Shown one piece after another: positions 9,019 to 34,740 of a DNA stretch of 38,478 nucleotides (position 1 is its first letter; each line of letters starts with the position of its first letter). The notes beneath the pieces were generated by a model. The model had not been told where the DNA came from. It saw nothing but the letters and a program-made list of their open reading frames with translations, and searched no databases. The position numbers and the translations under genes were made by a program. Source of the DNA: an uncultured bacterium. Its GTDB lineage: Bacteria > UBP7 > UBA6624. The stretch is from contig CAYFJE010000002.1 of the NCBI GenBank assembly GCA_964343345.1, positions 1 through 38,478 of the forward strand, in the 5' to 3' direction.

Positions 9019-9105
9019 GAAGTTTTGACCACGATGTTTCTTTGGAGGGTTTATTGCAAAATATTTAGAAGCCCTCCACCTTAAAGACTCTGGGTTTTTT
9101 CTGAT

Positions 9106-9324
9106 CTAAACTTCCTCGTAAAAAACTAAGGCCCCTGAAACAAACATTGTTGTCTTTATCCCATCTTCCTCTTTTGATGTATCCATTGTTACACCTGAAG
9201 AATACTTGATATCCAAGATTTTAATTTTGCCCTTCTGCTCATCTATCCAGGCATTTATCTCTCTGTCTAAAGGCGGAGTTCGGTAGTTTCCAAGACTAGA
9301 TTCCATGAAATGCTTTACTTTCAT
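9106..9324 (-). CDS. small hypothetical protein (pattern reminiscent of Cse60-type small proteins)
   Basis: 72-aa ORF directly abutting rsmA. The MKVKHF...REINAWIDEQ...ILDIKYS...MFVSGALVFYE pattern resembles Bacillus Cse60-like proteins from memory. This is a weak call. Confidence 0.3.
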   Translation of the reverse strand: MKVKHFMESSLGNYRTPPLDREINAWIDEQKGKIKILDIKYSSGVTMDTSKEEDGIKTTMFVSGALVFYEEV

Positions 9325-9357
9325 AGGTAAATCTTAATTCGAAAAATCAAACAAACC

Positions 9358-9375
9358 TAATCCAATTTTGGATTA
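9358..9375. promoter_or_regulatory. 18-bp inverted repeat in a divergent intergenic region (candidate operator)
   Basis: TAATCCAA-TT-TTGGATTA has perfect 8-bp arms with a 2-bp spacer. It lies in the 96-nt gap between the divergently transcribed 9106-9324 (-) and 9421-10356 (+) genes. Confidence 0.3.
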
Positions 9376-9420
9376 AAACTAAAAATAATGTACCATTGTT
9401 GGATATAAAATTAAAAAAGA

Positions 9421-10356: not shown

Positions 10357-10414
10357 TAAAACAATCAAAAACTATAAAAAATTTCTCATTGCTTTAGACA
10401 GCTTCAAAGGGACC

Positions 10415-11539
10415 TTGAGTTCAGCAGAAGCAGGAAGAATTGTTGCAAGAGCAGTCCATGAATATTCTCCGAAATCAAAAACAACTATAAAAAATTTCGC
10501 TGATGGTGGAGAAGGCACTGTTCAAGCTATTCTGGAAAATTATGAATACACCGAACACAAGGTTGAAACAGTTGGAGCCAATGGCATACCTATAGTTGCT
10601 AGTTGGTTTTTTCTAAAAGAAGAACAAATAGCATTATTTGAAATGGCATCAGTTGTCGGGCTTCCCCTCCTCACGGTTGAAGATTTGAATCCTGAGAAAA
10701 CAAGTACATTGGGAATTGCGCCAATCATTCTTGACATTTTAAATAAAAAAGTCAAAAAAGTATGGCTCGCTGCTGGAGGGACCTCAACCCTTGATGCAGG
10801 GCTCGGGCTTCTTAAAGGGATGGGAGTTCGTTTTAAAAACAAGGAATATCCTAAAAATTTAATCGAAATTAAAGGTTCTGAAGTTTTGGATTTTTCTAAA
10901 GTAGAAACAAGCAATAAAAACCTCCAACCTTACCCAGAAAAAGGCAATTGCCTGTTCCCAAGCGTGATTTTTGATATAATTGCTGATGTTCATGCTCCCT
11001 TGCTTGGTAGCAAAGGGGCTGTTTTTGCTTTTGGCAAACAAAAAGGAGCCACCCCAAAAAATACAGCTCTTCTAGAGAGGGGGATGGTTAATTTTTCCAA
11101 TGTCATTCAGGGAAAAACAAAAGATCCATCCTTTTTAAAATTGGGCGGATTGGGAGCAGCAGGAGGGATTGCCTTAGGGCTTTCTTTGTTGTTTAAAGTG
11201 AATATAAAAAAAGGAGCTGATTTTATTGTGGCAAAAACTGGAATAAACAAAACGATAGACAATTGTGACATCCTGATAACAGGAGAAGGGCAATTCAACT
11301 CTCAAAGCAAGCAGGGAAAAGGGCCTTGGGTTCTTGCATCTTTAGCAAAAGAAAGAAATATCCCAGCTTTGATTATTAGCGGGTTAAAGATGAGGAAAGA
11401 GGATAAGGTAGGGGATTTTCATTTTTTGGAAACCTCGAACTCTTCTCCAAAAAGCAAAACAGAAGCAAAGGAAAATCTTTTCAACGCAACAACAAAATGG
11501 CTTAAAGAAAACGAGGTGAATAATAATGAAACAAAATAA
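10415..11539 (+). CDS. glycerate kinase
   Basis: GGEGT motif (FADGGEGTVQAI) and C-terminal ILITGEGQFNSQSKQGKGPWVLASLAKERNIPALIISG are present. The coordinate is the ORF-track TTG. The family N-terminus KKFLIALDSFKGTL is encoded upstream in the same frame (10376-10417), so the true start lies between 10343 and 10390 at a non-ATG/GTG/TTG codon. Confidence 0.88.
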   Translation: MSSAEAGRIVARAVHEYSPKSKTTIKNFADGGEGTVQAILENYEYTEHKVETVGANGIPIVASWFFLKEEQIALFEMASVVGLPLLTVEDLNPEKTSTLGIAPIILDILNKKVKKVWLAAGGTSTLDAGLGLLKGMGVRFKNKEYPKNLIEIKGSEVLDFSKVETSNKNLQPYPEKGNCLFPSVIFDIIADVHAPLLGSKGAVFAFGKQKGATPKNTALLERGMVNFSNVIQGKTKDPSFLKLGGLGAAGGIALGLSLLFKVNIKKGADFIVAKTGINKTIDNCDILITGEGQFNSQSKQGKGPWVLASLAKERNIPALIISGLKMRKEDKVGDFHFLETSNSSPKSKTEAKENLFNATTKWLKENEVNNNETK

Positions 11540-14976: not shown

Positions 14977-17391
14977 ATGAACGCTACCAGAAAAAACAAG
15001 CATGAAGAGCTAGCAAGAACTCTTGGTCTTTACGATGTAACGATGATTGGTGTTGCAGCAATGATAGGTGCTGGAATTTTTGTTCTTACCGGAAAAGCAG
15101 CAGGCATTGCCGGGCCTGCCTTTTTGTTGGCATTTTTTTTGAATGGGGTTGTTGCAATGTTGACAGCAGGTGCATATGCAGAATTAGGGGCATCTTTTCC
15201 AGAGGCTGGCGGTGCTTTTATGTGGGTTGCTCAAGGATACCGAAAGGTGGTTTCTTTTATAGCAGGCTGGATGGGGTGGTTTAGTCACGTTGTTGCTGTT
15301 GCAGTTTACTCCCTTGGTTTCGGTGTTTATTTTCTTGAGCTTTTGAATTTTTTTGGACTAATGGATCATCCTGAGGATATCGGAGATGTGTATCAGCTTT
15401 ATGTGAAGGTTGGTGCTGTTGCTATTTGTTCTGTTTTGGCTTGGGTTAATTTTGTAGGAGTTTCTGAAACAGGAAAATTTGGTTCAATTATGAGCACTGT
15501 AAAAGTTTTAATATTGTTGCTTTTTGCGATTTTTGGTTTTATTCGCATTTTTCAAACAGATGGATTTACTCATTATGAACCGTTTTTCATATCATCAAAC
15601 GAACACGGGACTGCGATATTGGTTTTATTGGCAATGGGTGTTACATACATGGCTTTTGAAGGTTATGAGGTTATAGTGCAGGCAAGCGAGGAGGTCAAAA
15701 ATCCAGAAAAGAATATCCCAAAAGCTATTTTTTTATCAATCTTGGTTGTTTTGCCAGTCTACCTTCTTGTGGGAGGCGCCTCCCTCGGGGCTTTAAGTAT
15801 TTCTGGCTTGCCTGCTTCTCTTGGCGAAAAGTTTTCAGATCTCGCTTCCTCGGCATCACAGCCAATGACAAATTACAACTTAATGGCCTTTTTGGGAGAA
15901 AGAGCTGTTGTCGAGTCTGCAAATCAGTTCGTTTTGCCATTTAAATTTCCAGGCTCTAGCTATACGACAGGAATGTTCTTGGTCATCCTGGCAGGTATCG
16001 CTTCAACAACATCAGCACTGAATGGCACCCTTTTCTCATCAAGCAGGGTTGCTTTTGCAATGGGCAGAGAAGGTTTGCTGCCATCCATTTTAGGAAAAAT
16101 ACATCCGATTAAGCGAACACCCTACATGGGCCTTTTTGCTACAGCTGTGATTGTCATTTTAATCATTGTCACTTTGCCAATGGCAGCTGTTTCTGCCGCT
16201 GCAAATGTTATGTTTTTACTTCTTTTTACACTTGTTAACATGACATTAATCAAGCTTAGAAAAATAAAACCTAATGTGAAAAGACCTTTCAAAATGCCAA
16301 TGGTCCCACTTTTACCGATGATTGCAATTGTTCTTCAGATCATTATTGCAATTGGAGTTTTCTTTATCCCAGTTTCCCCGTTTGACGAACATGCCGCACA
16401 TTCTCCAGGAGCGATTGCTTGGGCGGTTACTTTACTTTGGATTTTTTCGGGGCTTCTTCTTTATGCGGGACCTTTCAGGAAGCTCAAACCAATGTCACGA
16501 TCAAGAATCCTTGAACAAGAAACGATGTATTCACCAGAAAGCAATAGCATACTGCTCGCTGTCGCACATCCAAGAAACCGTGAGTCTTTATCCCATCTTG
16601 CGGAAAGTGTAGCAAGGCCTGAAAACAGTCTTGTCCATATTGTTTCTATTGCAACCATTCCCGAAACAACACCTCTAACTTTTGCTCCTGAAAAGGATGT
16701 AAAAAAGAAACATGATTTAATAGAAGAGATAAGAGACACTTTAGAAAAGAAGAAAATGAAAATTAATTCCAGTGTTGTTGTAGGCAGGCATCCTGCTTCT
16801 GTCATATGTTCCGTAGCAGATTCAAGAGGTACTGATTTGGTTTTAATGGGTTACAGAGGAGGTAAGAAGAAAAAAGGACTCTTTCTAGGGGATACCTTAG
16901 ATAGGGTTTTAGCAGATTCTTCAAAAACCGTTGCAATCCTTAGACATGGCGGTAAAATTCCATACAAAAATGTTGCTGTTGCTGTGGGATTTGGGCCGAA
17001 TACGAAAAAGGCTATTGAAATTGGTACAAAAATTGCTTCCAGCAACAATGGAGAATTATTGATGCTAGCAATTGCAACGAACAAGAAAGAGGAAAAAGAT
17101 GCTCAAGAAAGACTTTCTTCATTTGCCGAGGAGATTAAAAAAGAAAACAAAAAATTAAAATTAAATTTACAAGTTACAAAATCACGATCTATAAAAAAAG
17201 CTATACTTGATTCAGCAAAATCAAGCGATCTTTTAGTGCTTGGAGCAAGTGTTAACGGAATTCTAGACAAGGCAAGGTTGGGAAATATTCAAGAAAGCAT
17301 TGCAAGAGAGTTTGATGGAAGCGTTCTTACTGTAAGAGTTCCTGAGGCACGAGTAAAAAGATGGATACACAGGTTATTGGACGATGAGTAA
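14977..17391 (+). CDS. APC-superfamily amino acid permease fused to two C-terminal universal stress protein (UspA) domains
   Basis: I chose the ATG at 14977 (MNATRKNKHEELARTLGLYDVTMIGVAAMIGAGIF). The ORF-track start 14899 overlaps the divergent amidase gene. About 12 TM segments are followed by two Usp-like repeats (ILLAVAHPRN...LVLMGYRG and VAVAVGFGPN...LLVLGAS). Confidence 0.85.
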   Translation: MNATRKNKHEELARTLGLYDVTMIGVAAMIGAGIFVLTGKAAGIAGPAFLLAFFLNGVVAMLTAGAYAELGASFPEAGGAFMWVAQGYRKVVSFIAGWMGWFSHVVAVAVYSLGFGVYFLELLNFFGLMDHPEDIGDVYQLYVKVGAVAICSVLAWVNFVGVSETGKFGSIMSTVKVLILLLFAIFGFIRIFQTDGFTHYEPFFISSNEHGTAILVLLAMGVTYMAFEGYEVIVQASEEVKNPEKNIPKAIFLSILVVLPVYLLVGGASLGALSISGLPASLGEKFSDLASSASQPMTNYNLMAFLGERAVVESANQFVLPFKFPGSSYTTGMFLVILAGIASTTSALNGTLFSSSRVAFAMGREGLLPSILGKIHPIKRTPYMGLFATAVIVILIIVTLPMAAVSAAANVMFLLLFTLVNMTLIKLRKIKPNVKRPFKMPMVPLLPMIAIVLQIIIAIGVFFIPVSPFDEHAAHSPGAIAWAVTLLWIFSGLLLYAGPFRKLKPMSRSRILEQETMYSPESNSILLAVAHPRNRESLSHLAESVARPENSLVHIVSIATIPETTPLTFAPEKDVKKKHDLIEEIRDTLEKKKMKINSSVVVGRHPASVICSVADSRGTDLVLMGYRGGKKKKGLFLGDTLDRVLADSSKTVAILRHGGKIPYKNVAVAVGFGPNTKKAIEIGTKIASSNNGELLMLAIATNKKEEKDAQERLSSFAEEIKKENKKLKLNLQVTKSRSIKKAILDSAKSSDLLVLGASVNGILDKARLGNIQESIAREFDGSVLTVRVPEARVKRWIHRLLDDE

Positions 17392-18427
17392 AAAGTTTGT
17401 AATATTAGTTTTGTTTTTTACCGGATTCTTCGGTTGTTATCGTCCGGCGATACCTTGGAAGATTACAGCATACTCGATTGTAAAAATAGAACCTGATGAA
17501 CACACAAGGGTAGCTCTAAACTGGAGCGGAGGCCCTGATGGAAAACCTGTTAATATAACAATTATTTACGATCTTCGTTTAGACGGAGATACTTATCGCT
17601 GGGAACCAGTTTCCAGAACGGAAAAATGGAAAAAAGTTCAAAGCTTAGATTTTGCAGAAGATGGAAATTCATTAGTTCTTGCTGCCGATCTCAGAACGCG
17701 AGATATTTGGTTTTGGGAAATAGACAAACTTCCAATCGAATTTACATCAAATAAAGAAATTGAAGGAGATGTTGCTCTTGCAGGAGATTTGGTTGTTTTT
17801 AGAAAAAAAGAAGGCAAGGCACATAATCTTTTTTCGAAATCTATCAATGGAATCGAAGGTCAAAGATTAACTAATGGAAATTCTGTAAGGTGGAATTTAA
17901 AAATTCTAAAAACTGAGTATGGCTTTGATGTAATTCATAATGTTTTGAACGGTATGAATTTAGGTATATCGACTGTTTCGTTAAGCGAAGCAACCCCTAA
18001 AAGGATTTTAGACAACCCAGGACCAGAGCCTTCTTTTGACATTGCTAAGGACAAGATGATTTATTCAAACGAAAATAAATGGTTTTTGTGTGAAGGAAAA
18101 GAGAGACCGTGGGAGGGAGGCTGCAAAGAGCACAGTGTTTCAAGTGAATTTAATTGGACTGGCGATGTTTTTGTTTTAGATAAAGGTGTTTATGGTGGAG
18201 TTGTGGCAAGCGAGGCATCTCCAACCACCAGTTTACTTTACAGAGACACAGAAAGAACTCTAACAAAAAACTACACAGGCGATATAAAGAGTTTAAAGTC
18301 AGAAGGCAACTTGCTTGCTCTTGTTTTAAATAACCCAGCAACAGGAGATTTTTTCAGATTAGAAATTTTTGATGATTCCGGAATAAAATCCCTACCCCCT
18401 CTTTACCCTCCAGAATCAGTAGATTGA
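17384..18427 (+). CDS. hypothetical lipoprotein
   Basis: Lipobox-like N-terminus MSKKFVILVLFFTGFFGC. The start overlaps the permease end by 8 nt. The sequence is beta-rich and I recognised no family. Confidence 0.5.
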   Translation: MSKKFVILVLFFTGFFGCYRPAIPWKITAYSIVKIEPDEHTRVALNWSGGPDGKPVNITIIYDLRLDGDTYRWEPVSRTEKWKKVQSLDFAEDGNSLVLAADLRTRDIWFWEIDKLPIEFTSNKEIEGDVALAGDLVVFRKKEGKAHNLFSKSINGIEGQRLTNGNSVRWNLKILKTEYGFDVIHNVLNGMNLGISTVSLSEATPKRILDNPGPEPSFDIAKDKMIYSNENKWFLCEGKERPWEGGCKEHSVSSEFNWTGDVFVLDKGVYGGVVASEASPTTSLLYRDTERTLTKNYTGDIKSLKSEGNLLALVLNNPATGDFFRLEIFDDSGIKSLPPLYPPESVD

Positions 18428-19356
18428 TTTTCATTCCACAGCATCTTTAGGTGCTTTAGGAGAGTGGGTTTCGGGTAGTTAGATAAAACTCTTACGCTCC
18501 ACCCTTTTTGTGTTTGCGGCAGCATGGCCGCCCATCCTTCTAAATCTAAATCAAGAGCTTTTTTCAAAATTCTGAAATTTTGATTTCTTGTTTGATCTTC
18601 AAAATAAATTAAATAAACATAACTGTCTTTTTCTTCAGAAAGGTATCTCAGGAAAAGGCCTTTGATACCCCCTTCTTCAGCAGCCTTTGTCGAAAGAAAA
18701 ATAGCTTCTTGCTTTTTTGCTCCTAAGATTTTTTCAGGCACGAAAAACTTATGGCTCAGAGATTTTGAAAATTTTGAGATGATGTAATCAACATGTTGTT
18801 TCGGTGGGAAAAAGACACCTTCTTCGAGATTTTCTTCTTCAATATTTATCTCAATAACATCAATCAGTTTTTCACTTTGCTCTTTTACCCGCTCTCTTCT
18901 TATGGGAAGTTGATATTCTTTATGAAGCCAGTAAGTTGTTTTTACACCGTTTTTTTCCCAAGAATCTTCAGAGTTAAAGACGGAAAGAATATCCACGTCA
19001 TCAATAACAAGATCTTCTTTTTCCCAGTCACCATCCTCTTGAGGAATGTTTTTTACCTGGTCCCAAACATAACCAGGCATCAAGAGACGGGCCATTTCTT
19101 TGTTTTGGGGGAAGAAAGTGCGATCGAAAAAAAGATTAACATCAATATCGCTCATGATGTAAATATTTTCTTTTGGTCCAAGAATAAAAAAATTATCATC
19201 ATCTTCCTCAAGTCGGATATTTCCATTTTTTGAGAAATACTTAATACTTTTTTCATTTATTGTTCGACCTTGAATATTTTGATAAAATTTAATTTCACCG
19301 CGATAAGAATAAGGAATTGTTTCCTCGATCAAAAAAAGAAATAAAAATAGAAACAT
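18403..19356 (-). CDS. hypothetical protein, possible LolA/RseB-like partner of the upstream sigma/anti-sigma pair
   Basis: Its start abuts the stop of the anti-sigma candidate (19357/19356). It has a hydrophobic N-terminus. The assignment rests mainly on gene context, with no motif-level support. Confidence 0.3.
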   Translation of the reverse strand: MFLFLFLFLIEETIPYSYRGEIKFYQNIQGRTINEKSIKYFSKNGNIRLEEDDDNFFILGPKENIYIMSDIDVNLFFDRTFFPQNKEMARLLMPGYVWDQVKNIPQEDGDWEKEDLVIDDVDILSVFNSEDSWEKNGVKTTYWLHKEYQLPIRRERVKEQSEKLIDVIEINIEEENLEEGVFFPPKQHVDYIISKFSKSLSHKFFVPEKILGAKKQEAIFLSTKAAEEGGIKGLFLRYLSEEKDSYVYLIYFEDQTRNQNFRILKKALDLDLEGWAAMLPQTQKGWSVRVLSNYPKPTLLKHLKMLWNENQSTDSGG

Positions 19357-19791
19357 CTAACTTAAGAAAGGGTCTTCCGTCAATAAAGAGTTGAGATCTG
19401 AAATATTGCCACTCAATCCAGTTTTCGAAGCCCTTTCAACACGATCCAAGCTTATTTCAATTTGTTCACCCGCCCTGAAAGAATCCCTAACATAGCCCCA
19501 TCCAAAATATGAAATAGAAAGAGAAAATACGAAAAGTGTCGAAAAAGAATACCCCGCTATAGATGTTGCAGCCCATTTTCTTTTCTGGATTTTAATTTTT
19601 CTTTCAATCAGGCCAGATAGATTTTTCCCCAGTTTTTTTGTTTTGAAAGAGTTTAATTCCGGGATATCGGCTTTTTCCTCTTCCATTAGGTTTTTCAAAA
19701 TAATTTTTATATTCTTAGGAGGAACCCGTTTGGGAAGGGTGTTTTTTATCAATTTTAAAAAATCCCGATTTTCTTTTTCAGAAAAAAACAT
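19357..19791 (-). CDS. putative membrane-anchored anti-sigma factor
   Basis: It lies 2 nt downstream of the ECF sigma gene. It has a single TM segment, WAATSIAGYSFSTLFVFSLSISYFGWGY, in the middle of a 144-aa protein. There is no zinc HxxxCxxC motif. Confidence 0.4.
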   Translation of the reverse strand: MFFSEKENRDFLKLIKNTLPKRVPPKNIKIILKNLMEEEKADIPELNSFKTKKLGKNLSGLIERKIKIQKRKWAATSIAGYSFSTLFVFSLSISYFGWGYVRDSFRAGEQIEISLDRVERASKTGLSGNISDLNSLLTEDPFLS

Positions 19792-19793
19792 TA

Positions 19794-20462
19794 TTATTTA
19801 TTATCCATATATTTTTTGAATTTGATACGAGCCTTGTGAATTCTCATTTTTACAGCCGTTACGGAGCAGCCTAAAATTTCTGCAATATCAAGATATGTCA
19901 ATTCTGGCTGTATCGCAAGCAGCAAAGCCTCTCTTAGGTTGATGGGCAGAAGCATCAAGGCTTCTCCAATCTTTTCTGCCTGGCCTTCTTGCTTTATCAC
20001 GTCTTCGGCATTCGGGTTCTTCCCATCTCCTGGATCAAATGTGTCTCCAGCCTCCCCACCTCCAAACATACCCTCTATGGAGGTTGGCCTTTTTCCCTGG
20101 GCTGACAATAAAGTGTTCCCTTGGTTCCTTCCAATTGTGAAAAGCCAAGTTTTGAATTTCTGTTTCGGGTTAAATTTTTTAGCATATTTCCAAACCCTGA
20201 AAAAGGATTCCGCAGCAGCGCCTTCCGCCGTTGCAGGGTCTTTGATGTAAAGGCTCAAGAAATTAAAAAGGGGTGATTGGTATCGTTCCACTAGCTCCCC
20301 CAATGCTTCATGATTGTTTTTGGCTACAAGTTCCATCAATTCTTCGTCAGTTTTCTTCCCAAGGGTCATACCTGACTCCATCCTATACCTCTCAGCCAGG
20401 GGTTTTGTTTCTGAAAAAGTGAGGTTTGGGCATAGACTGCTTGTCAGAATTGCGGGTTCCAA
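19794..20462 (-). CDS. RNA polymerase ECF-type sigma-70 factor
   Basis: Region 2 (ELVERYQSPLFNFL..., FKTWLFTIGRNQ) and the region 4 HTH (LTYLDIAEILGCSVTAVKMRIHKARIKF) are present. The ORF-track start is a TTG at 20462. Internal ATGs at 20381 or 20369 are plausible alternatives. Confidence 0.85.
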   Translation of the reverse strand: MEPAILTSSLCPNLTFSETKPLAERYRMESGMTLGKKTDEELMELVAKNNHEALGELVERYQSPLFNFLSLYIKDPATAEGAAAESFFRVWKYAKKFNPKQKFKTWLFTIGRNQGNTLLSAQGKRPTSIEGMFGGGEAGDTFDPGDGKNPNAEDVIKQEGQAEKIGEALMLLPINLREALLLAIQPELTYLDIAEILGCSVTAVKMRIHKARIKFKKYMDNK

Positions 20463-20466
20463 CTTA

Positions 20467-21810
20467 TTAATAAGTTGGATATCTTGTTGAAACTACAAAT
20501 TCCTGGACCCCGTTATTTAGTCTCGAATACCCAACATGGAATCCGCGATCTCCATGCGGGGAAATGACGTTGTCAAAAACAGGGTTCATGTTGATTGGGA
20601 TATCAGTGGGACTTGATCCATTCCAACCCGTAACAATGTCGCCACCCCAGAGATTCCCTTTTGCGAATCTGTGATTCAAAACAAAGTCAAAAGGAGCTTC
20701 ATGCTCCCACCAGAAAACATGTTTTTTGCCGCTTGGCTCTATCCCTAGAGATATTTCTGCAGCAGCAAGATTATTGACAGGGTCATAAGCCATTGCGACC
20801 AGTTTTTCTGGTCCGGCTGTCAATGGTGTTGAGATTGACCATTCCCTATAAACAATCGCATCTGGATGAAGATTTGATTGGTCTGAATTGCTTTGGTACA
20901 CTAATGTTAGGTATCCTGTAGAGGGGTTGATTTCAAAATCAAATGAATCAGTAACATTTGTTGCTATAAACTGATTACTTCCAGCCCAATTGTTGGCATC
21001 ACTGCAGTCGCTTGTGAGTAGGCAATGGTAAAGCTTTAAACCCAAGCCTGCATTATCTGCTCGGGCAATTATCACAATGCTTCCTCCTGCGATCTTTACG
21101 ACAGGGGATGTTCCTACTGCAGAAAACCCCGCATTTGCCCCATCGATAGACACGTAATTAGTCCAATCTGCAAAGTTGTAGAGCCCTGCTTGTAGGTTTG
21201 CTAATGGATAATCCATCAAGAGCAATTCCATATTAATGGCTAAATCATCAAAACCTTCTTGCCAAGCCAGGAGAAGAGTGTTGTTTGTTGTATCAATTGC
21301 AGCAGTTGGGGCCCCACCACCTATCGTGTTTGGCAAGTTCGATCCACACCCTTGCAGGCTACCTCCCGCTGCCCATGTTCCATCCCAGCACCAGTAGGTT
21401 ACAAATGTGTCAGCACTCGGGACATCCTCAGTTGCAAAAATATGCAATACTCCAATGTTTGTTGAGTTAAAAACCGAATTATTGTTATCAATAATCGCAG
21501 TTACCCCACTGCATCCAATACCACCCCCAATTGTCATTTTTTCGGTTGTGTTAAAACTTCCCGAAACATCTTTGTAAATTTCAAGTTGACCAGCACTCAC
21601 GCCATTTGAGTTACATGATAAAAGATAATTGTTCCCCTGGAAGTCATAAATGTAATGGCTTTCAGAGTAAACGTTAGCAGTTTGCACCAAGGGTACAACA
21701 CTGCTGTCTGGCCCTGCGTAGCCTATCGGATGCGTAACTGAACCCCCACTTCCGCCACATGCGGATATTGCGATAATTAAAATTGCTAAAAGTCTGATGA
21801 TTTTTTTCAT
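20467..21810 (-). CDS. hypothetical lipoprotein, Gly/Asn/Ser-rich beta-type fold
   Basis: Signal peptide plus lipobox, MKKIIRLLAILIIAISAC. 447-aa ORF with no family recognised. Confidence 0.5.
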   Translation of the reverse strand: MKKIIRLLAILIIAISACGGSGGSVTHPIGYAGPDSSVVPLVQTANVYSESHYIYDFQGNNYLLSCNSNGVSAGQLEIYKDVSGSFNTTEKMTIGGGIGCSGVTAIIDNNNSVFNSTNIGVLHIFATEDVPSADTFVTYWCWDGTWAAGGSLQGCGSNLPNTIGGGAPTAAIDTTNNTLLLAWQEGFDDLAINMELLLMDYPLANLQAGLYNFADWTNYVSIDGANAGFSAVGTSPVVKIAGGSIVIIARADNAGLGLKLYHCLLTSDCSDANNWAGSNQFIATNVTDSFDFEINPSTGYLTLVYQSNSDQSNLHPDAIVYREWSISTPLTAGPEKLVAMAYDPVNNLAAAEISLGIEPSGKKHVFWWEHEAPFDFVLNHRFAKGNLWGGDIVTGWNGSSPTDIPINMNPVFDNVISPHGDRGFHVGYSRLNNGVQEFVVSTRYPTY

Positions 21811-28036: not shown

Positions 28037-28858
28037 ATGATAGGTGCTTTCTTGCTTGCGTTTTTATTTAAGCCTTGTGTTGGGCATGAAGATTTTTGTG
28101 AAAAAAGATATAACGAAATTTCTTATTTGGTTACTCACAATGCAATGTCTTCAACATACGATCGTTGGTTTTTCCCAAATCAAGACCAAGGTCTTCTAGA
28201 GCAACTTGAAGATGGGGTTAGAGGTCTGTCTTGGGATATTCATTACGACGAAGGGAAAGTGTATCTTTGTCACGGATATTGTTGGCTCGGCAAGAGAGAA
28301 TTGGGAGAAGATCTAAAAATTTTAAAAAACTGGCTTGAAGAAAATCCAAGGGAAATTATTTCAATTTTTTTTGAAAGCTATGTTTTGCGAGAAGATGTTG
28401 AGAAAGTGTTTGAAGAAGTCGGCTTGATTCCTTACCTGCATCACCAGGAAAAAAATAAAGAATGGCCAAAAACTATAGAAATGATAACTAGCAACAAGAG
28501 AATCGTTGTTTTTACAAGCAAAGATGGAGGTGTTACCAATTGGTATCATGATGGATGGATGTATATGTGGGACACAGATTTTTCTTACAGAAAAACAGAA
28601 GACTTTACATGTTCAAGACATAGAGGTGAAAAGTCATCTTTAAACCTCTATAGCCTTAACCACTTCTTGACAAATCCTCTGGCTTCTAGAAAACTTGCAA
28701 AGAAAGCAAACCCAACCTTGTACGAGAGGGCAGTAAAATGCTGGTCAGAAGTTGGACAGAGGCCTAACTTTATTTTTGTCGACTTCTACTCCATTGAAGA
28801 AACCCTTGAAGCGGTCGAAAGGTTAAATTTCTACAGTCTTGATGCAACGAAGAGATAA
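28037..28858 (+). CDS. PI-PLC X-domain-like phosphodiesterase
   Basis: YLVTHNAMSS and GVRGLSWDIHYDEGKVYLCHG resemble PLC-like phosphodiesterase TIM-barrel proteins (PLCXD-like). It has a short hydrophobic N-terminus. Confidence 0.5.
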   Translation: MIGAFLLAFLFKPCVGHEDFCEKRYNEISYLVTHNAMSSTYDRWFFPNQDQGLLEQLEDGVRGLSWDIHYDEGKVYLCHGYCWLGKRELGEDLKILKNWLEENPREIISIFFESYVLREDVEKVFEEVGLIPYLHHQEKNKEWPKTIEMITSNKRIVVFTSKDGGVTNWYHDGWMYMWDTDFSYRKTEDFTCSRHRGEKSSLNLYSLNHFLTNPLASRKLAKKANPTLYERAVKCWSEVGQRPNFIFVDFYSIEETLEAVERLNFYSLDATKR

Positions 28859-28880
28859 CAGCAACTTACAATTCAGAAGA

Positions 28881-29810
28881 ATGAATACAAAAGACGAGTC
28901 TTCGATAATACAACTCAATGTCATAAGGCTTGGGAAGCTTGTTGGTTTTGCAATGAAAAAAGCCCTTAAGGGAAAACCTTTTAACACAGATGTTTTTTTG
29001 GCAAAAGCAAGAGCCAGAGAGTCCGAGATTAACACTTTAGAAATTGAAATTGAACAAGATATTCAAAAATTAATCAAATTCAAACTTGAAGAAAAAGAAT
29101 CGAGGCATTTGACAGCATTGTTGAAAATGAACAATGATTTAGAAAGAATTGGAGACTATGCAATGGCTATAGCCAAATATCTGGTTGAAATAGATATAAA
29201 AAATGTACCTGATATTGAAGCCAAATTCAAAAAACTTTCAAAAGCCTCCCTAGGAATGCTTGAAAGAGCTGTCCGCGCACTTGAGCTAGGTGATTTAAAT
29301 TTAGCAAAACAAGTCATCAAAGACGATGATCATGTCGATGCTCTTAATAAGTCAATTATCGAGAAACTGCTTTCTTCAAAGACAAGGGATTTAGTTTCAC
29401 TTGTTGCACTAATCAATCTCTGTAGACGACTTGAAAGAACAGCCGACCATGCAACGAATATAGCCGAGGACCTGGTTTTTTGGATAGAGGGAGATGTAAT
29501 TAGGCACCCTTTGAAAAAAAGATCTTTTTATTTTCACGATATCGAAATTTTCCCTAATAGCAGGGAAATCAAAATTGGAGAAAAAATCCATTTGTCAAAA
29601 AGCGAATGGGAGATTTTTATGAACCTAATTGAAAAATCCCCCAACGGCGTCTCAAGAGAGGAGTTAATGAAAAATGCACTTGGTTATGACTCTTCTGTCG
29701 AAACCCGAACTATTGACCAGCATGTTGTTGGTCTGCGTAAAAAACTTGGAGACAAAAAGGAGATGCTCAAATCCATTCCAGCTTTTGGCTACAAAATACT
29801 TAATTCGTAG
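28881..29810 (+). CDS. PhoU-domain / OmpR-PhoB-type winged-helix DNA-binding domain fusion protein (no receiver domain)
   Basis: Two PhoU repeats carry the signature motifs NDLERIGDYAMAIA and RRLERTADHATNIAEDLVFWIEG. From about nt 29526 there is a trans_reg_C-like domain: IHLSKSEWEIFMNLIEKSPNGVSREELMKNALGYDSSVETRTIDQHVVGLRKKLG...IPAFGYKI. The start is ambiguous among TTG 28839, ATG 28842 and ATG 28881. I prefer 28881 because it does not overlap the upstream gene. Confidence 0.8.
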   Translation: MNTKDESSIIQLNVIRLGKLVGFAMKKALKGKPFNTDVFLAKARARESEINTLEIEIEQDIQKLIKFKLEEKESRHLTALLKMNNDLERIGDYAMAIAKYLVEIDIKNVPDIEAKFKKLSKASLGMLERAVRALELGDLNLAKQVIKDDDHVDALNKSIIEKLLSSKTRDLVSLVALINLCRRLERTADHATNIAEDLVFWIEGDVIRHPLKKRSFYFHDIEIFPNSREIKIGEKIHLSKSEWEIFMNLIEKSPNGVSREELMKNALGYDSSVETRTIDQHVVGLRKKLGDKKEMLKSIPAFGYKILNS

Positions 29811-29823
29811 AATTAACACAAAA

Positions 29824-29855
29824 TTTTTACAACTTTTTTACAACTTTTTAAAAAA
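29824..29855 (+). promoter_or_regulatory. Pho-box-like direct repeats upstream of pstS
   Basis: TTTTTACAAC (29824-29833) is followed by TTTTTTACAAC (29834-29844). The TACAAC cores sit at 29828 and 29839, exactly 11 bp apart. A degenerate third unit TTTTTAAAAAA follows. A TATTTA -10 candidate is at 29869-29874, an AAAGGAGG RBS at 29895-29902, and the pstS ATG at 29916. Confidence 0.45.
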
Positions 29856-29915
29856 TCTTTAAAAACCCTATTTAGGATTTAAATTTAAACCCGAAAAGGA
29901 GGATTTTTTTTAAAA

Positions 29916-30803
29916 ATGAGATTTAAATTTATCAGTTTCTTCACATTGTTAGCCTTGCTAGCAGTAAGCTGTGCACGCCCTCAAGAATCAGGCGGAAACA
30001 CTGCTGAAAAAAATTCTTCTTCAGGGGGAGAGCAAAGCATTCAAGTTACAGGTTCTGACACCATGGTCAACCTGGGTCAAGCATGGGCAGAAGAGTATAC
30101 TAAAACAAACCCTAATGCCTATATTGCTGTTGGTGGTGGAGGCTCTGGGGTTGGAATCGCTGCTTTGATGAACGGCACTGCTGATCTTGCAAACTCTTCA
30201 AGGGCCATCAAAGACAAAGAGATCAACAAAGCAAACGAGCTTGGCTTCGGAATAGAGGAGTATATTGTTGGTTGGGACGGACTTGCTGTTGTTGTTCACC
30301 CTGATAACCCAGTTAACAATTTAAGTATTTTGCAAATAGCCGAAATATTTACTGCAAAAATTACAAACTGGAAAGAGGTTGGAGGAGAGGATTTGGAAAT
30401 CGTTCTTTTATCACGAGAAGTAAATAGCGGAACCCATGTTTATTTCAAGGAGAAGGTTGTAGGTTCTTTAGGAAAAGGAACAGAATTTAGCGAAGAGGCA
30501 CTATTGATGCCAAGTAGCCAAGCCCTTGCTGACGAAACAGCAAATAACACCGGAGCAATTGGATATTATGGTATGGGATACTTGTCGCCAGCACAAAAAC
30601 CTATCAATGTATCTGTTGATGGAGTTACTTTCGTTTCGCCAACTGTTGAGAATGTAATGAACAAATCCTACCCAATCGCAAGACCTTTACACATGTTCTC
30701 AAGAGACAATATTTCCCCAGCAGCAAAAGCTTATATCGATTGGATTATGAGTGATGGTGGGCAAGCTGTGGTTTCAGCACAGGATTTTGTTCCTCTAAGG
30801 TGA
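29916..30803 (+). CDS. pstS: phosphate ABC transporter substrate-binding lipoprotein
   Basis: Lipobox LLAVSC is present. The PBP-like_2 pattern is seen in VTGSDTMVNLGQAWAEEY, GGGGSGVGIAAL and REVNSGTH. The gene heads a pstCAB cluster. Confidence 0.9.
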   Translation: MRFKFISFFTLLALLAVSCARPQESGGNTAEKNSSSGGEQSIQVTGSDTMVNLGQAWAEEYTKTNPNAYIAVGGGGSGVGIAALMNGTADLANSSRAIKDKEINKANELGFGIEEYIVGWDGLAVVVHPDNPVNNLSILQIAEIFTAKITNWKEVGGEDLEIVLLSREVNSGTHVYFKEKVVGSLGKGTEFSEEALLMPSSQALADETANNTGAIGYYGMGYLSPAQKPINVSVDGVTFVSPTVENVMNKSYPIARPLHMFSRDNISPAAKAYIDWIMSDGGQAVVSAQDFVPLR

Positions 30804-30810
30804 TTAGTAT

Positions 30811-31719
30811 TTGAAAACCAAACCAAGCAAGAAAAAAGCAGAGGATTTCAAACAGCCTTTGTCTGAGAAAATAACAGAGGCATGCATTCGCTTCGCAGCT
30901 TGGCTTTGCATTTTTTTCATTGGTTGCATTCTTTACTTTTTGATCAAGGAAAGCGGAGGCGTTTTTTTTAAGGATATTTTCACGATAACAGGTAAATACT
31001 GGAGACCAATTAGTGAACCACCAGATTTTGGTGTTTGGGTTTTGCTTGCAGGAAGTTTAGCAGTAACGCTTACAGCATCAGTCATTGCTGTTCCTTTAGG
31101 CATTTGTGCGGCTATTTTCATAGGGGAGTTGTTGCCACAGAAATTCCGAGAACTTTTAAAAGTTATGGTTGAATTTTTAGCAGCAATACCAAGCGTTGTC
31201 ATCGGTTTTTTGGGGATGATTATTCTTGCCCCATACATCAAGGAAACTTTTGATTTAAAAACAGGATTAACAGCTTTTTCAGCAGCAATAATGCTTGCGT
31301 GGATGGCAATGCCAACAATAGTTAGCCTTACTGAAGATGCCCTTAGGAGTGTGCCAGATACCTTGAGAGACGGAGCCTTGGCTCTTGGTGCTACGAAATG
31401 GCAGATGATTACAAGAGTTCTTTTGCCAACAGCAAAACCAGGGATACTTGCCGCAGCAATGCTTGGTATAGGCAGGGTTATTGGTGAAACTATGGCAGTG
31501 TTGATGATTAGCGGTAATTCCGCAAGAATTCCAAAAGGCATCATGGAACCAGTCCGAACACTTACTGCGACAATTGCTGCAGAAATGGGAGAAACAGTCA
31601 AAGGGGATGAACATTATCAAGCTCTTTTCGGGCTCGGTGTTGTTTTGTTTATTATCACATTATTGATCAACACTGCAGCAGATAAATTTATCAATAAAAA
31701 ATACACGGAAGAATCATGA
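30811..31719 (+). CDS. pstC: phosphate ABC transporter permease PstC
   Basis: TTG start. Polytopic membrane protein with an EAA-type loop (LTEDALRSVPDTLRDGALALGATKWQMITRVLLP). Confidence 0.9.
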   Translation: MKTKPSKKKAEDFKQPLSEKITEACIRFAAWLCIFFIGCILYFLIKESGGVFFKDIFTITGKYWRPISEPPDFGVWVLLAGSLAVTLTASVIAVPLGICAAIFIGELLPQKFRELLKVMVEFLAAIPSVVIGFLGMIILAPYIKETFDLKTGLTAFSAAIMLAWMAMPTIVSLTEDALRSVPDTLRDGALALGATKWQMITRVLLPTAKPGILAAAMLGIGRVIGETMAVLMISGNSARIPKGIMEPVRTLTATIAAEMGETVKGDEHYQALFGLGVVLFIITLLINTAADKFINKKYTEES

Positions 31720-32576
31720 GTTTCAAAAAACAAAATCCAATCAGCCAGCAAAAAAGAGCCACATTTGGTTTAGGGCTTATTACAGCTATTGTGGTTATTC
31801 CGGTGCTGTTGATACTGGGTGTTGTTTTTGTTAAAGGGATTTCGGTTATAGATTGGAATTTCCTAACAACAGAACCGACAAATGGCTTAAGGGATGGCGG
31901 TGTTTTTCCTGCCATAATTGGGACATTGATTCTTGTTGTAGGTGCTGTTGTTTGGAGTGTTCCCTTTGGCGTAGCAACAGCGATTTATCTAGTTGAGTAT
32001 TCACCAAGAAGTCGTGTAGCCAACTGGATAAGATTGGCAATTTTAAATTTAGCAGGTGTCCCAAGTGTTGTTTATGGACTTTTCGGGCTCGGGGTGTTTG
32101 TCATAGCTTTGAAGTTTGGCGCAAGTATTCTTGCAGGCACTTTGACCTTGGCATTAATGAATTTACCCGTAATAGTGACATCAACTGCAGAAGCATTAAA
32201 AGCTGTTCCAGACAGATTTAGAGAAGCAAGTTTGGCATTAGGTGCTAGCAAATGGCAAACAACAAGACACGTTGTTCTCCCCAACTCAATACAAGGCATC
32301 TTGACTGGAATAATATTGGAAATCAGTCGTGCTGGAGGGGAAACTGCACCAATTTTATTTACTGTTGCAGCATTTTATTTGCCAAGATTGCCGCAAAGTA
32401 TTTTTGATCAGGTGATGGCACTTCCTATGCATCTTTTTGCTATTTCCACACAGGTTCCTAATATAGGTTTGGATGTGAGGTATGCCGTTGCCCTAACTCT
32501 TTTATTTTTGGTTTTAGGTGTAAATGCAATTGCGATTTTCATGAGAGCAAAAATAAGGAAAAACAGAATATGGTAA
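31716..32576 (+). CDS. pstA: phosphate ABC transporter permease PstA
   Basis: 4-nt overlap with pstC. EAA loop STAEALKAVPDRFREASLALGASKWQTTRHVVLP is present. Confidence 0.9.
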   Translation: MSFKKQNPISQQKRATFGLGLITAIVVIPVLLILGVVFVKGISVIDWNFLTTEPTNGLRDGGVFPAIIGTLILVVGAVVWSVPFGVATAIYLVEYSPRSRVANWIRLAILNLAGVPSVVYGLFGLGVFVIALKFGASILAGTLTLALMNLPVIVTSTAEALKAVPDRFREASLALGASKWQTTRHVVLPNSIQGILTGIILEISRAGGETAPILFTVAAFYLPRLPQSIFDQVMALPMHLFAISTQVPNIGLDVRYAVALTLLFLVLGVNAIAIFMRAKIRKNRIW

Positions 32577-33319
32577 AAGAGATAACTATCGAAAAACTTT
32601 CAGTTTCATACGGAAGAAAACAGGCCATAGGAGATCTTTCTTTGTCGATTGAAAAAAATGAAATATTGGGAATAATTGGTCCCACCACTTCTGGGAAGAC
32701 AACTTTGCTTACGGTTTTAAACAGAATGATTGACACAATATCGTCAGCCACTATTTCTGGCAGTGTGTTTATGGGTGATATCGATATTCTAAAAACACGA
32801 AACATCCATAGTTTGAGGCGGTCTGTTGGGATGATATTTGCTCTTCCGGTTGCTTTACCAATGAGCATCAGGGAAAACGTTGAATATGGCCCAAAAATGG
32901 CAGGAGAGCCAAAAAACGAACTCAACAAGCGAGTCCAAGAAAGCCTTGTTCAGGCAGGATTGTGGGACGAGGTTAGTGACAGACTAGATTCACCAGCCTT
33001 AAAGCTTTCAGGAGGGCAGCAGCAAAGACTCTGTATAGCAAGAGCCTTGGCGTTGAAGCCCAGAGTTCTATTGCTGGACGAACCTTGCTCTGGGCTTGAT
33101 CCAATATCAACAGCCAGAATAGAAGATACATTGGGTGAATTGAAAAAAGAAATGACTATCATTTTGGTCACCAACAACCCCCACCAAGCCGCTCGTGTTG
33201 CGGATCGAACAGCTTTTATGTTGAAGGGGGAGCTTGTCGAACTCTCTGAAACAAACAAATTGTTTACAAATCCTTCAGACAAAAGAACAAAAGAGTATAT
33301 AGAGGGGAAGTTTGGTTAA
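32570..33319 (+). CDS. pstB: PstB-like ABC ATPase, degenerate copy (Q-loop Gln to Ala, switch His to Asn; signature intact)
   Basis: Walker A is GPTTSGKTT. The Q-loop position reads VGMIFALPVALPMSI (GCT at 32840-32842). The signature is LSGGQQQRLCIARA and Walker B is LLLDEPCSGLDP. The H-loop reads LVTNNPHQAARV (AAC at 33173-33175). The C-terminal PstB tail is KRTKEYIEGKFG. Confidence 0.85.
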   Translation: MVKEITIEKLSVSYGRKQAIGDLSLSIEKNEILGIIGPTTSGKTTLLTVLNRMIDTISSATISGSVFMGDIDILKTRNIHSLRRSVGMIFALPVALPMSIRENVEYGPKMAGEPKNELNKRVQESLVQAGLWDEVSDRLDSPALKLSGGQQQRLCIARALALKPRVLLLDEPCSGLDPISTARIEDTLGELKKEMTIILVTNNPHQAARVADRTAFMLKGELVELSETNKLFTNPSDKRTKEYIEGKFG

Positions 33320-34083
33320 TGACAAAAATATTAATAAAGTCTGAAAAATTTAATTTATGGTATGGCGACTTCCAGGCTTTAATAGATGTAAATCTTGATA
33401 TACCAGAAAATCAAGTTACTGCTGTTGTAGGTCCTTCTGGGTGTGGAAAAAGCACTTTTGTACGATGTATCAATAGGCTAAATGACCAAATTAACACCGT
33501 TACGACCAAAGGCTCTATTTCTATTGATGGAATAGATATTTACCAATATACAACTGACGAGGTTGTCGGCCTCAGGAGATCTGTAGGCATGGTTTTTCAA
33601 AGGCCTAACCCTTTTCCTCTTTCTGTTTTCGAAAATGTTGCTTTTGGCTTGAAAACGAATCCAATGGTCCCTGACGATTTGGCTATAAAAAAAGAAGTTA
33701 ACAAGGCATTAAAAGCTGTAGGCTTGTTCGAAGATTTAGAAGGGGATTTTTCAAAATTGGGGACCAGTCTTTCATTGGAGCAACAGCAAAGATTATGTAT
33801 TGCAAGATGCCTTCCAACAAAACCAAAAATATTACTTATGGACGAACCCTGTTCCGCGTTGGACCCAAGTGACACAGATAAAGTGGAAGAGCTCATAAGA
33901 GAATTAAGGAGAGACTATACTGTTGTAATAGTGACACATAATTTACAACAAGCTGGAAGAATTTCCGATCAGGCTGTACTGTTTCATTTAGGAAAAATCG
34001 TTGAAGCAGCTCCAACAAAGGATTTTTTTCAAAATCCACAAGAAAAAAGAACAAGAGACTTTATTACAGGTCGGTACGGATAG
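33319..34083 (+). CDS. pstB: PstB ABC ATPase, catalytic copy with degenerate signature motif (LSLEQ)
   Basis: Canonical Walker A GPSGCGKST, Q-loop VGMVFQRPNPFP, Walker B LLMDEPCSALDP and H-loop VIVTHNLQQAGR are present. The signature reads LSLEQQQRLCIARC (33769-33783) instead of LSGGQ. The start overlaps the upstream stop by 1 nt. Confidence 0.9.
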   Translation: MTKILIKSEKFNLWYGDFQALIDVNLDIPENQVTAVVGPSGCGKSTFVRCINRLNDQINTVTTKGSISIDGIDIYQYTTDEVVGLRRSVGMVFQRPNPFPLSVFENVAFGLKTNPMVPDDLAIKKEVNKALKAVGLFEDLEGDFSKLGTSLSLEQQQRLCIARCLPTKPKILLMDEPCSALDPSDTDKVEELIRELRRDYTVVIVTHNLQQAGRISDQAVLFHLGKIVEAAPTKDFFQNPQEKRTRDFITGRYG

Positions 34084-34092
34084 GAGTAAATA

Positions 34093-34740
34093 ATGACAAG
34101 AAGATTGACTAAATTAATCGACAAAATTAAAGGAAAAACCTTAGCGATGGCACAAGATGTTTGCGCTTCAATGGACGATGCAATGAATGCGATACTGAAT
34201 TCCACCGATAAAAAATACCAAGAAATGAAAACAAGAGAAAACGGAATTGATGCTTTGGAAGTTGAAATAGAAGAATCAATACTTGGGACAATTGCTGTTC
34301 ATCAGCCCGTCGCGGATGATTTGAGAATTCTTGCAGCAATGCTGAAGATAACAAATGACCTAGAGAGGATTGGCGATTATGCAATAAAAATTGCTCAAAG
34401 AGGCAAGGATATTGATGCAAATTTGATAAAAAGTATCAAGGCTCCACTGTCACAACTAGGAGACTCTTCAATTCAGATGATTAAAGATGCAGTTGAAGCT
34501 TTAGATAAAGGAGACGCGGATCTTGCTCAAAAGGTTAGAGATGCTGATGACAGGGTGGACGATTTAAACAAATCTTTAATCAAGGAGTTAGCAAAGATAA
34601 ATGACGATGATTTTGAGTCACTGGTTGCTCTTGTTTCAATATCTAGACGATTTGAAAGAGCTGCAGATCATGCTACGAATATTGCGGAAGATGTTTTGTT
34701 TTGGCTTGAAGGGAGGATCTTCAGACACGGAGAAACATAG
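34093..34740 (+). CDS. phoU: phosphate signalling accessory protein PhoU
   Basis: 215 aa with two PhoU repeats, carrying NDLERIGDYAIKIA and RRFERAADHATNIAEDVLFWLEG. It sits immediately after pstB. Confidence 0.9.
   Translation: MTRRLTKLIDKIKGKTLAMAQDVCASMDDAMNAILNSTDKKYQEMKTRENGIDALEVEIEESILGTIAVHQPVADDLRILAAMLKITNDLERIGDYAIKIAQRGKDIDANLIKSIKAPLSQLGDSSIQMIKDAVEALDKGDADLAQKVRDADDRVDDLNKSLIKELAKINDDDFESLVALVSISRRFERAADHATNIAEDVLFWLEGRIFRHGET

Follow-up and report, generated by a model that had tools for sequence, protein, structure and literature searches.

A PhoU module fused to a PhoB-type winged helix beside pst: a candidate one-component phosphate regulator in uncultured bacteria

PhoU connects PstSCAB with PhoR and keeps the Pho regulon repressed when inorganic phosphate (Pi) is high (PMC13577022, PMC9239213, PMC4423584). 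The Pho signal tracks the conformation of the transporter (PMC5775613), and PhoU homologs form homodimers (PMC11705898). At the output end of such systems, response regulators of the OmpR/PhoB family are activated when dimerisation of their receiver domains lets two effector domains bind tandem sites, and these effector domains bind 11-bp-phased direct repeats in a head-to-tail arrangement (PMC3973317). How PhoU senses and relays the Pi status has nevertheless remained unresolved after decades, and its output in model bacteria can be read only via PhoR and PhoB (PMC5775613, PMC4423584, PMC9239213). We describe here a gene of an uncultured bacterium (GTDB lineage UBP7, UBA6624) which encodes a PhoU module and a PhoB-type winged helix in a single polypeptide, next to a pst operon. 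It lies at positions 28881-29810 of contig CAYFJE010000002.1, whose 38,478 nucleotides (GC content 38.5%) were analysed as a whole and are called the window below.

A PhoU module and a winged helix in one reading frame

The gene is carried by an uninterrupted open reading frame (ORF) of the forward strand that ends at 29810. The first-listed start is a TTG at 28839, and the ATG at 28881 yields a protein of 309 residues. Since conservation among the orthologs begins at this methionine, ATG 28881 is the best-supported start. The parts of the gene are the following.

28881 to 29810, forward strand: fusion gene, 309 residues plus stop codon, comprising PhoU module, linker and OmpR/PhoB-type winged helix (ORF list, Pfam, NCBIfam, orthologs 73-81% identical)
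28881 to 29507, forward strand: PhoU module, residues 1-209, six helices making two three-helix repeats (AlphaFold2 model, Foldseek, conserved-position test)
29508 to 29525, forward strand: linker PLKKRS, residues 210-215, after the PhoU C-terminal EG..RH motif (model confidence, pLDDT, drops to about 71-73; junction alignment)
29526 to 29798, forward strand: winged-helix domain, residues 216-306, with a four-stranded sheet, three helices and a wing hairpin (Trans_reg_C, NCBIfam PhoB models, Foldseek)

The initial annotation had proposed that a complete two-repeat PhoU is joined here to an OmpR/PhoB-type winged helix-turn-helix (wHTH), and both profile hidden Markov models (HMMs) and fold comparisons bear this out. 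In Pfam, PhoU (PF01895) matches in two stretches with 104.7 bits (cut-off 23.5, E 3.4e-30) and Trans_reg_C (PF00486) matches residues 233-305 with 56.2 bits (cut-off 26.2, E 3.7e-15); neither Response_reg nor AbrB/MazE gives a Pfam match on the fusion. The NCBIfam model phoU_full aligns to residues 11-205, and residues 213-305 align with the DNA-binding part of response-regulator models. Two PhoB models come first among these (54.9 and 42.5 bits), followed by CseB (37.7) and MtrA (37.2). The PhoB equivalog models are matched in their DNA-binding portion only, with 42.5 bits vs a whole-model cut-off of 296.2 (TIGR02154) and 54.9 vs 270 (NF053854), so that neither cut-off is reached.

The AlphaFold2 model of the fusion has a mean pLDDT of 88.6, and the helices of its PhoU module span residues 3-29, 36-65, 71-101, 110-136, 139-165 and 171-203. 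The top Foldseek matches in the PDB are the PhoU structures 4q25, 1t8b, 1xwm and 2i0m, with TM scores normalised to the target of 0.84-0.89. They are followed by DNA-binding domains (DBDs) of the OmpR/PhoB family, including ArlR and the PhoB-pho-box DNA complex 1gxp (0.78-0.80); CovR, YycF and the CadC DBD 5ju7 are further fold matches of the winged helix. The motifs NDLERIGDYA and ER(T/A)ADHATNIAED, noticed earlier as shared with the stand-alone phoU at 34093-34740, are indeed found in both proteins, and the PhoU module is 42% identical to that protein over 201 residues.

The fusion is not a response regulator, since residues 1-209 are a PhoU and no receiver domain with a phospho-acceptor Asp is present. 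It is a one-component system by architecture: input and DNA-binding output lie in one chain that lacks phosphotransfer domains. That the PhoU module acts as the input is our inference.

Comparison with relatives shows that the fusion is maintained. The same architecture occurs at 80% and 73% identity in independent ENA and Logan assemblies, and four species-level metagenome-assembled genomes (MAGs) carry it at 74-81% identity to the window. Altogether, the frame is uninterrupted in at least six independent assemblies (ENA, Logan, JGI, GenBank) at 73-81% identity. Eight loci, L001-L008, make up this window clade, within which amino-acid identity of the fusion is 71-87%; at least one source assembly of L008, ERR594303, is a Tara Oceans run, and the habitat may be marine. 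Junction residues F200, W201, E203-V206, R208-P210 and K212-F216 are almost invariant among the clade's orthologs, and the junction point is the same as in the other fusion lineages described below. Fourfold-degenerate sites are only 27-57% identical between the window and its relatives. For the pair formed with L007 they are 27% identical, vs 72% for the PhoU part and 80% for linker and DBD at the protein level. Both halves of the fusion are thus under purifying selection, because the protein is conserved while the fourfold-degenerate sites are saturated.

Rarity, lineages and origins

The architecture is extremely rare. An exhaustive HMMER search of 1.84 billion cluster representatives with a profile of the fusion found three that match both domains: P0003, which represents the window clade, P0121 (311 residues) and P0123. 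Pfam confirms PhoU and Trans_reg_C in the latter two. P0123 had been called too short, and the ORF on its contig (L012, 7866-8834) encodes 322 residues, as does its JGI relative P0270; L012, P0123 and P0270 form the second fusion lineage. In a profile search of a collection of 5.8 billion clusters, P0270 was the only additional fusion among the 8,000 candidates scored, and no further lineage appeared. Representative genomes of 185,579 species were also scanned: the fusion occurs only in the four window-clade MAGs, and no fusion of the P0270 or P0121 type is found among these genomes. A metagenome scan with an alignment of linker and DBD gave only PhoU C-termini among the matches listed (L019, for example, is a plain PhoU), which makes a weak negative. 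A homology search with the DBD only was uninformative, returning four candidates and one fragment, and the DBD was compared through NCBIfam, the PDB and pairwise BLAST. Fusions strongly diverged in both domains could fall below the listed scores of these searches. One match that seemed to span the junction, in L015 (Enorma), was rejected as a plain PhoU of 222 residues.

The only source name carried by any fusion protein is 'phosphate transport system protein', which makes no mention of a DNA-binding domain. Literature searches on PhoU with Trans_reg_C, winged helix or one-component, which had most subscription journals outside their reach, retrieved no description of the architecture. This agrees with the earlier remark that no characterised regulator of this kind was known to its author, and the databases add a spread of three fusion clusters. 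A different combination was met in P0225 (374 residues), where PhoU is followed by a low-molecular-weight phosphotyrosine phosphatase/ArsC-like domain (PF01451, 1.2e-10).

In a tree of the PhoU modules, built by neighbour-joining (a simple distance method) and with moderate bootstrap support, the window clade and P0121 group together (68% bootstrap). Their group is sister to the clade of stand-alone PhoU proteins of the window lineage (89%), which is the closest non-fusion relative of the window fusion's PhoU module. The modules of L012 and P0270 are placed elsewhere, among ordinary PhoUs. Pairwise comparison of the DBDs gives the same picture, with 77 bits between the window and P0121 and at most 50 bits for every other pair involving the window. 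The L012 DBD is closest to that of an ordinary response regulator in L010 (97 bits, 48% identity), whose best NCBIfam match is PhoB and whose gene is followed by a PnpS/PhoR-like kinase gene; PhoB models are also the best-scoring response-regulator models for the L012 DBD itself. The fusion appears to have arisen at least twice, as judged from the PhoU tree and the DBD similarities, which both separate L012/P0270 from the window clade; this evidence for two or more independent origins is suggestive and not proven.

The lineages follow one plan. Domain order is the same, and in each of them a few residues separate the EG..RH motif at the PhoU C-terminus from the start of the wHTH. The AlphaFold model of P0270 (pLDDT 91.4) has the same layout as the window fusion, with a disordered linker at residues 210-226. 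In L012, the fusion takes the place that phoU normally has behind pstSCAB, and the operon contains no other phoU. A gene for a 646-residue hybrid histidine kinase lies at 8930-10870 of the same contig, convergent to the fusion gene.

The pst locus and the possible mode of regulation

The fusion had been placed at the head of the pst operon, and it does stand directly upstream of pstS in every window-clade locus with enough flanking sequence. The gene order in these loci is an M24 peptidase gene on the opposite strand, a PLC-like gene, the fusion, and pstS-pstC-pstA-pstB1-pstB2-phoU. In the window, the neighbours of the fusion are the following.

28037 to 28858, forward strand: upstream gene, weak candidate for a PI-PLC X-domain-like phosphodiesterase (PI-PLC-X, E 0.0015, below threshold)
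29916 to 30803, forward strand: pstS, phosphate-binding protein (PBP_like_2 at 9e-44)
30811 to 32576, forward strand: pstC and pstA, permease subunits (ORFs 30811-31719 and 31716-32576; BPD_transp_1 in the syntenic L001 genes)
32570 to 33319, forward strand: pstB1, ATPase subunit with degenerate Q-loop (Q to A) and H-loop (H to N) (ABC_tran, alignment)
33319 to 34083, forward strand: pstB2, ATPase subunit with canonical catalytic loops and a degenerate signature, LSLEQ (ABC_tran, alignment)
34093 to 34740, forward strand: stand-alone canonical phoU (TIGR02135, 164.8 bits vs a cut-off of 130.25)

The initial annotation had also noted that the window holds neither a receiver domain nor a histidine kinase. 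Pfam indeed detects none in the 30 larger ORFs of the window, the fusion and the stand-alone phoU, a set that leaves out pstC and pstA; the counterparts of these two genes in L001 match BPD_transp_1 only. When about 101 kb of partly redundant window-clade DNA was searched by tblastn with response-regulator and kinase queries, only the fusion's own DBD was matched, and full response regulators aligned through their DNA-binding parts only.

The candidate DNA target lies in the spacer that follows the fusion. The relevant elements are given here together with one codon of the recognition helix.

29811 to 29915, forward strand: conserved 105-bp spacer from the fusion stop codon to pstS, presumed pst promoter/operator (comparison with relatives)
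29816 to 29848, forward strand: candidate operator, three ACAA half-sites at 11-bp phase (sequence; Tandem Repeats Finder, period 11)
29730 to 29732, forward strand: codon 284, GGT for Gly, in the recognition helix, aligned with PhoB Arg201 (alignment, codons)

The spacer is 77-87% identical to those of the relatives, and its 5' core block 89-97%. It is thus under strong constraint, because fourfold-degenerate sites reach only 27-57%. The ACAA cores lie at 29818-29821, 29829-29832 and 29840-29843, one helical turn apart. The tandem direct repeats that had been reported beside the gene are present in the window, where the unit TTTTTACAACT occurs in 2.4 copies at 29824-29849 with 100% matches. 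Their exact duplication is however specific to the window, since five related loci have a single TTTTTACAACT unit, yet two ACAA half-sites 11 bp apart. The more general pattern WWACAA-N5-WWACAA has three matches in the window vs 0.30 expected, and each of the eight loci of the window clade has one closely behind the stop codon of the fusion. Additional matches occur inside pst coding sequence, at the 3' end of the window pstB1 (33253-33269) and on the minus strand of pstA in L001, L007 (11201-11217) and L008; they could be chance matches or intragenic sites. In the second lineage, the pstS promoter of L012 (3989-4021) carries three CT[AC]ACA[AT]T units with exact 11-bp spacing. This pattern is found nowhere else in the 10.9-kb locus, which shows uniqueness only, as the pattern was derived from that site.

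The residues that would read such an operator were compared with those of E. coli PhoB, using a sequence identical to that of PDB 1gxp. The correspondences are as follows.

PhoB Thr194: Thr277 in the window fusion
PhoB His198: His281
PhoB Arg203: Arg286
PhoB Glu177 (acidic patch): Glu260
PhoB Glu191 (acidic patch): Glu274
PhoB Val197: Gln280
PhoB Arg219 (wing): Pro300

For PhoB, PMC3973317 describes a base-specific hydrogen bond between Arg201 and guanine, contacts of Thr194 and Val197 with thymines, and a pair of residues, Glu177 and Glu191, that face region 4 of sigma-70.

We favour, tentatively, the reading that the fusion is a soluble one-component phosphate regulator of pst, activating at low Pi; it may well be right, though we stop short of calling it probable. 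The phosphate-regulator interpretation given by the initial annotation is supported in this sense, and we infer the DNA target, the signal, the dimerisation and the polarity of regulation alike. The protein would be a PhoB-type transcription factor whose receiver domain has been swapped for a whole PhoU protein. Its PhoU module would read the Pi status by docking on PstB of the adjacent PstSCAB when Pi is replete, or alternatively or additionally by binding a metal or Pi, and would probably supply dimerisation too. The flexible linker would allow a pair of winged helices to occupy the 11-bp-phased ACAA repeats in head-to-tail order. At high Pi, the fusion would be held inactive on the transporter; at low Pi, it would be freed, bind the repeats and activate pstSCAB1B2-phoU as PhoB would. 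Three points favour activation on Pi limitation: the resemblance of the domain to PhoB, its preserved acidic patch, and the known logic by which a regulator is released from a transporter at rest. The retained Glu260 and Glu274 point to a potential for activation. Phosphotransfer from PhoR cannot control the protein, since it has neither receiver domain nor phospho-acceptor Asp. Linkage to pst holds in two apparently independent fusion lineages, and the second of them, in which a fully canonical PhoU within the pst operon carries a PhoB-like DBD, lends independent support to the phosphate-regulator reading.

Several observations weigh against this proposal. The first concerns the state of the PhoU module, which was assessed at 55 alignment positions conserved to at least 85% in 364 stand-alone PhoUs. 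The window clade keeps 38 of the 55, and the 17 losses are concentrated at residues 40-74, in the helix2-loop-helix3 segment. The near-universal PhoU consensus replaced there is A..D...D..EE.CL..LALhQPxAxDLR, and the partner surface of the module may thereby have changed. The window fusion also stays below the cut-off of the PhoU equivalog TIGR02135 (118.8 vs 130.25 bits). Pfam, motifs and fold place it in the PhoU family; the curated cut-off and the missing segment exclude it from the equivalog. The window operon also keeps a canonical phoU as a separate gene. In Staphylococcus aureus, PhoU homologs show no detectable binding to PhoR or to transporter proteins (PMC11705898), so that docking on PstB is not universal. 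On the DNA side, position 284 is Gly in the window only and Arg in all five relatives (codons CGA, AGA or AGG). The phased repeats show a PhoB-type operator at pstS, but any PhoB-type regulator would be expected to have them there, and they suit a canonical PhoB as well as the fusion; phoBR may lie elsewhere in the genome. Finally, a scan for sigma-70 promoters and terminators gave matches at chance level and no convincing sigma-70 promoter.

The Gly284 substitution and the duplicated operator unit occur together in the window alone, which has three ACAA cores vs two in the relatives; the pair could be a matter of compensation, altered specificity or incipient decay. Elements of -10 and -35 type that had been placed by eye were dropped, as they are not conserved across the relatives.

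The opposite polarity is doubtful, although a serious competitor to activation. The fusion would then be a Pi-replete repressor or anti-activator, whose PhoU module forms a DNA-binding dimer at high Pi and shuts off pst, either acting alone or by competing for Pho-box-like sites with a canonical PhoB encoded elsewhere, phoBR being possibly present in the rest of the genome. It would fit PMC11705898 and PMC4423584, which describe PhoU as acting negatively on the phosphate response. The position of the repeats can be read in the same direction. They abut the fusion stop codon, about 29 bp upstream of a conserved TA(G/T/A)GAT element, a spacing unlike that of classic PhoB sites, which lie 10 bp upstream of the -10. 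Near the spacer there is a single sigma-70-like match, TTGGCT-17-TAGAAT with its end at 29813, and it would put the repeats just downstream of its -10, the geometry of a repressor. However, this match does not exceed chance and L007 does not conserve its -35, the DBD keeps the PhoB-like acidic-patch residues associated with sigma recruitment, and no kinase or receiver was found in the roughly 101 kb of clade DNA searched. Since the promoter-like matches are at chance level, the position of the operator cannot decide between activator and repressor.

A more improbable alternative is that the PhoU module no longer reports the state of the transporter. Following duplication, it would be another kind of sensor or a scaffold, namely a module binding a metal or intracellular Pi, a pure dimerisation module or a heterodimer partner of the stand-alone PhoU, and pst need not be its sole or principal target. 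Loss of the ALhQPxAxDLR segment in the window clade would agree with this, both E/D-xxx-D motifs being kept; so would the S. aureus homologs, which dimerise without detectable partner binding, and the retention of the canonical phoU. The sister position of the fusion PhoU to the canonical PhoU of its lineage (89% bootstrap) indicates duplication followed by divergence. Indeed, the history of the window clade looks like a duplication of phoU, fusion of one copy to a DBD and divergence of one surface, the canonical phoU being kept at the operon end. Against this alternative stand the strict linkage to pst in every recovered locus with enough flank, in both fusion lineages, and the conserved operator-like block exactly at the pstS promoter. 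The L012 protein argues in the same direction, as its PhoU part is fully canonical and the operon's only phoU: it keeps 54 of the 55 conserved positions and reaches 200.2 bits on TIGR02135 (P0121 scores 131.5). No other fusion shows a genuine PhoU joined to a PhoB-like output as clearly as that of L012. The window clade does retain all motif positions of DLERxGD, ERxADHxTNIAED and G...RH, but docking on PstB is less certain there than in L012, because the QPxAxDLR segment has been lost. The positions equivalent to Ala147/Arg148, which contact PhoR in PhoU of E. coli and Salmonella, are by eye not conserved even in the window's canonical PhoU, so this comparison is uninformative.

An artefact, be it an assembly chimera (against which the initial annotation had warned), a frameshift that merged phoU with an orphan DNA-binding gene or a pseudogene in decay, is hardly credible and was rejected: the rarity of the architecture and the Gly at a key DNA-contact position might suggest one, but the frame is uninterrupted and the junction F200-F216 nearly invariant in independent ENA, Logan, JGI and GenBank assemblies, both halves are conserved though synonymous sites are saturated, two further lineages share the junction, and AlphaFold gives confident folds for both halves.

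The activator proposal can be carried further, into a form that we consider rather unlikely as a whole. The Pho pathway of seven proteins would be short-circuited, leading from PstSCAB through the PhoU-wHTH protein to DNA, with no PhoR or PhoB in the genome and an asymmetric PstB1/PstB2 pair as the docking platform, and this would have happened independently in a GC-rich lineage. If it were true, the long-debated PhoU signal would become directly measurable as promoter output or DNA binding.

The ATPase subunits deserve a separate description. In PstB1, the Gln of the Q-loop (MIFALP) and the His of the H-loop (VTNN) are gone and the LSGGQ signature is kept, a pattern complementary to that of PstB2. 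This complementary degeneracy is conserved in the clade (window, L005, L007); the PstB proteins of L012 and L015 are canonical. The sequences predict an asymmetric ATPase dimer, unusual for Pst, in which one ATP site is of consensus type and the other degenerate. This asymmetric pair might be linked to the occurrence of two proteins with a PhoU domain, though that is speculation.

Upstream of the fusion, the PLC-like gene encodes a secreted-looking product, and its ortholog in L002 has precomputed PF26178/PF26146 hits (Rv2075c_cat/PI-PLC_X). It is probably co-transcribed with the fusion, because only 22 bp separate it from the fusion ATG, and may be a phosphate-scavenging phosphodiesterase expressed with the regulator. 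A TACAAT hexamer at 28867-28872 precedes the fusion ATG by 8 nt and is shared with L005 and L007, although the two genes stand so close together; it may act as an internal promoter from which a short-leader or leaderless transcript starts. Pho-box-like sites considered upstream of the PLC-like gene show only a partial and poorly conserved resemblance, and no claim is made for them. In the remainder of the window, a 967-residue ORF (11526-14429) has no Pfam match at E <= 0.001, and the same holds for ORFs of 347, 317, 144 and 447 residues which, within 17384-21810, flank a gene for a sigma factor of the extracytoplasmic function (ECF) type (19794-20462). Rfam found nothing in the window.

Comparison with known systems

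The fusion would be of use as a minimal system, in which one protein and about 100 bp of DNA, with or without the transporter, could serve to study the PhoU signal, be it PstB conformation, Pi or a metal. Having apparently arisen at least twice beside pst, it provides Rosetta-stone evidence that the state of a PhoU module alone can gate a PhoB-type output, and PhoU joins the input modules that can take the place of a receiver on OmpR/PhoB winged helices. The general physiological importance of the fusion is limited by its being rare and found so far only in uncultured organisms.

Among described proteins, PhoB is the closest on the output side. Both have a C-terminal winged-helix effector, PhoB HMMs score best on that of the fusion and its fold matches 1gxp. 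Equivalents of Thr194, His198, Arg203, Glu177 and Glu191 are present, that of Arg201 in the relatives only, and the likely target is likewise a set of 11-bp-phased direct repeats upstream of pstS. Unlike PhoB, the fusion has no receiver and no phospho-acceptor Asp but PhoU as its input module. The wing Arg219 is not conserved, Val197 is replaced by Gln and, in the window copy, Arg201 by Gly.

With stand-alone PhoU, the fusion shares the two repeats, the six-helix bundle, both E/D-xxx-D motifs and a gene beside pstSCAB. The window fusion differs by its attached DBD, by the loss of ALhQPxAxDLR and by a score below the equivalog cut-off. It is also encoded at the head of the operon instead of the tail, whereas the L012 fusion occupies the normal tail position.

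A conceptual precedent is found in the archaeal SpoVT/AbrB-PhoU regulators, which also combine a PhoU module and a DNA-binding domain in one polypeptide. In these proteins of archaeal hosts, however, the DNA-binding part is a swapped-hairpin AbrB domain and not a winged helix, and the domain order is presumably the opposite, with the DNA-binding domain N-terminal in the Pfam architectures. Literature searches retrieved no functional characterisation of this group. One member, TK2245, listed as a 'SpoVT/AbrB family regulator containing PhoU domain', is among chromosome-associated proteins (PMC7325993).

The use of an OmpR/PhoB-type winged helix as an output without phosphotransfer is shared with the CadC/ToxR and SARP/AfsR regulators. 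Their winged helix is N-terminal, and the input is periplasmic or a BTAD/NB-ARC module. CadC has been described as a one-component receptor (PMC5430869). The fusion differs from all of these in that its C-terminal winged helix mirrors a response regulator from which the receiver has been swapped out.

For the postulated mode of action, the nearest analogies are MalT-MalK and Mlc-PtsG, where a soluble transcription factor is held inactive by its cognate transporter subunit in one transport state. The likeness is one of working principle only, as these proteins have no sequence or fold relationship to the fusion; by analogy, PstB would play for the PhoU-wHTH protein the part that MalK plays for MalT and PtsG for Mlc.

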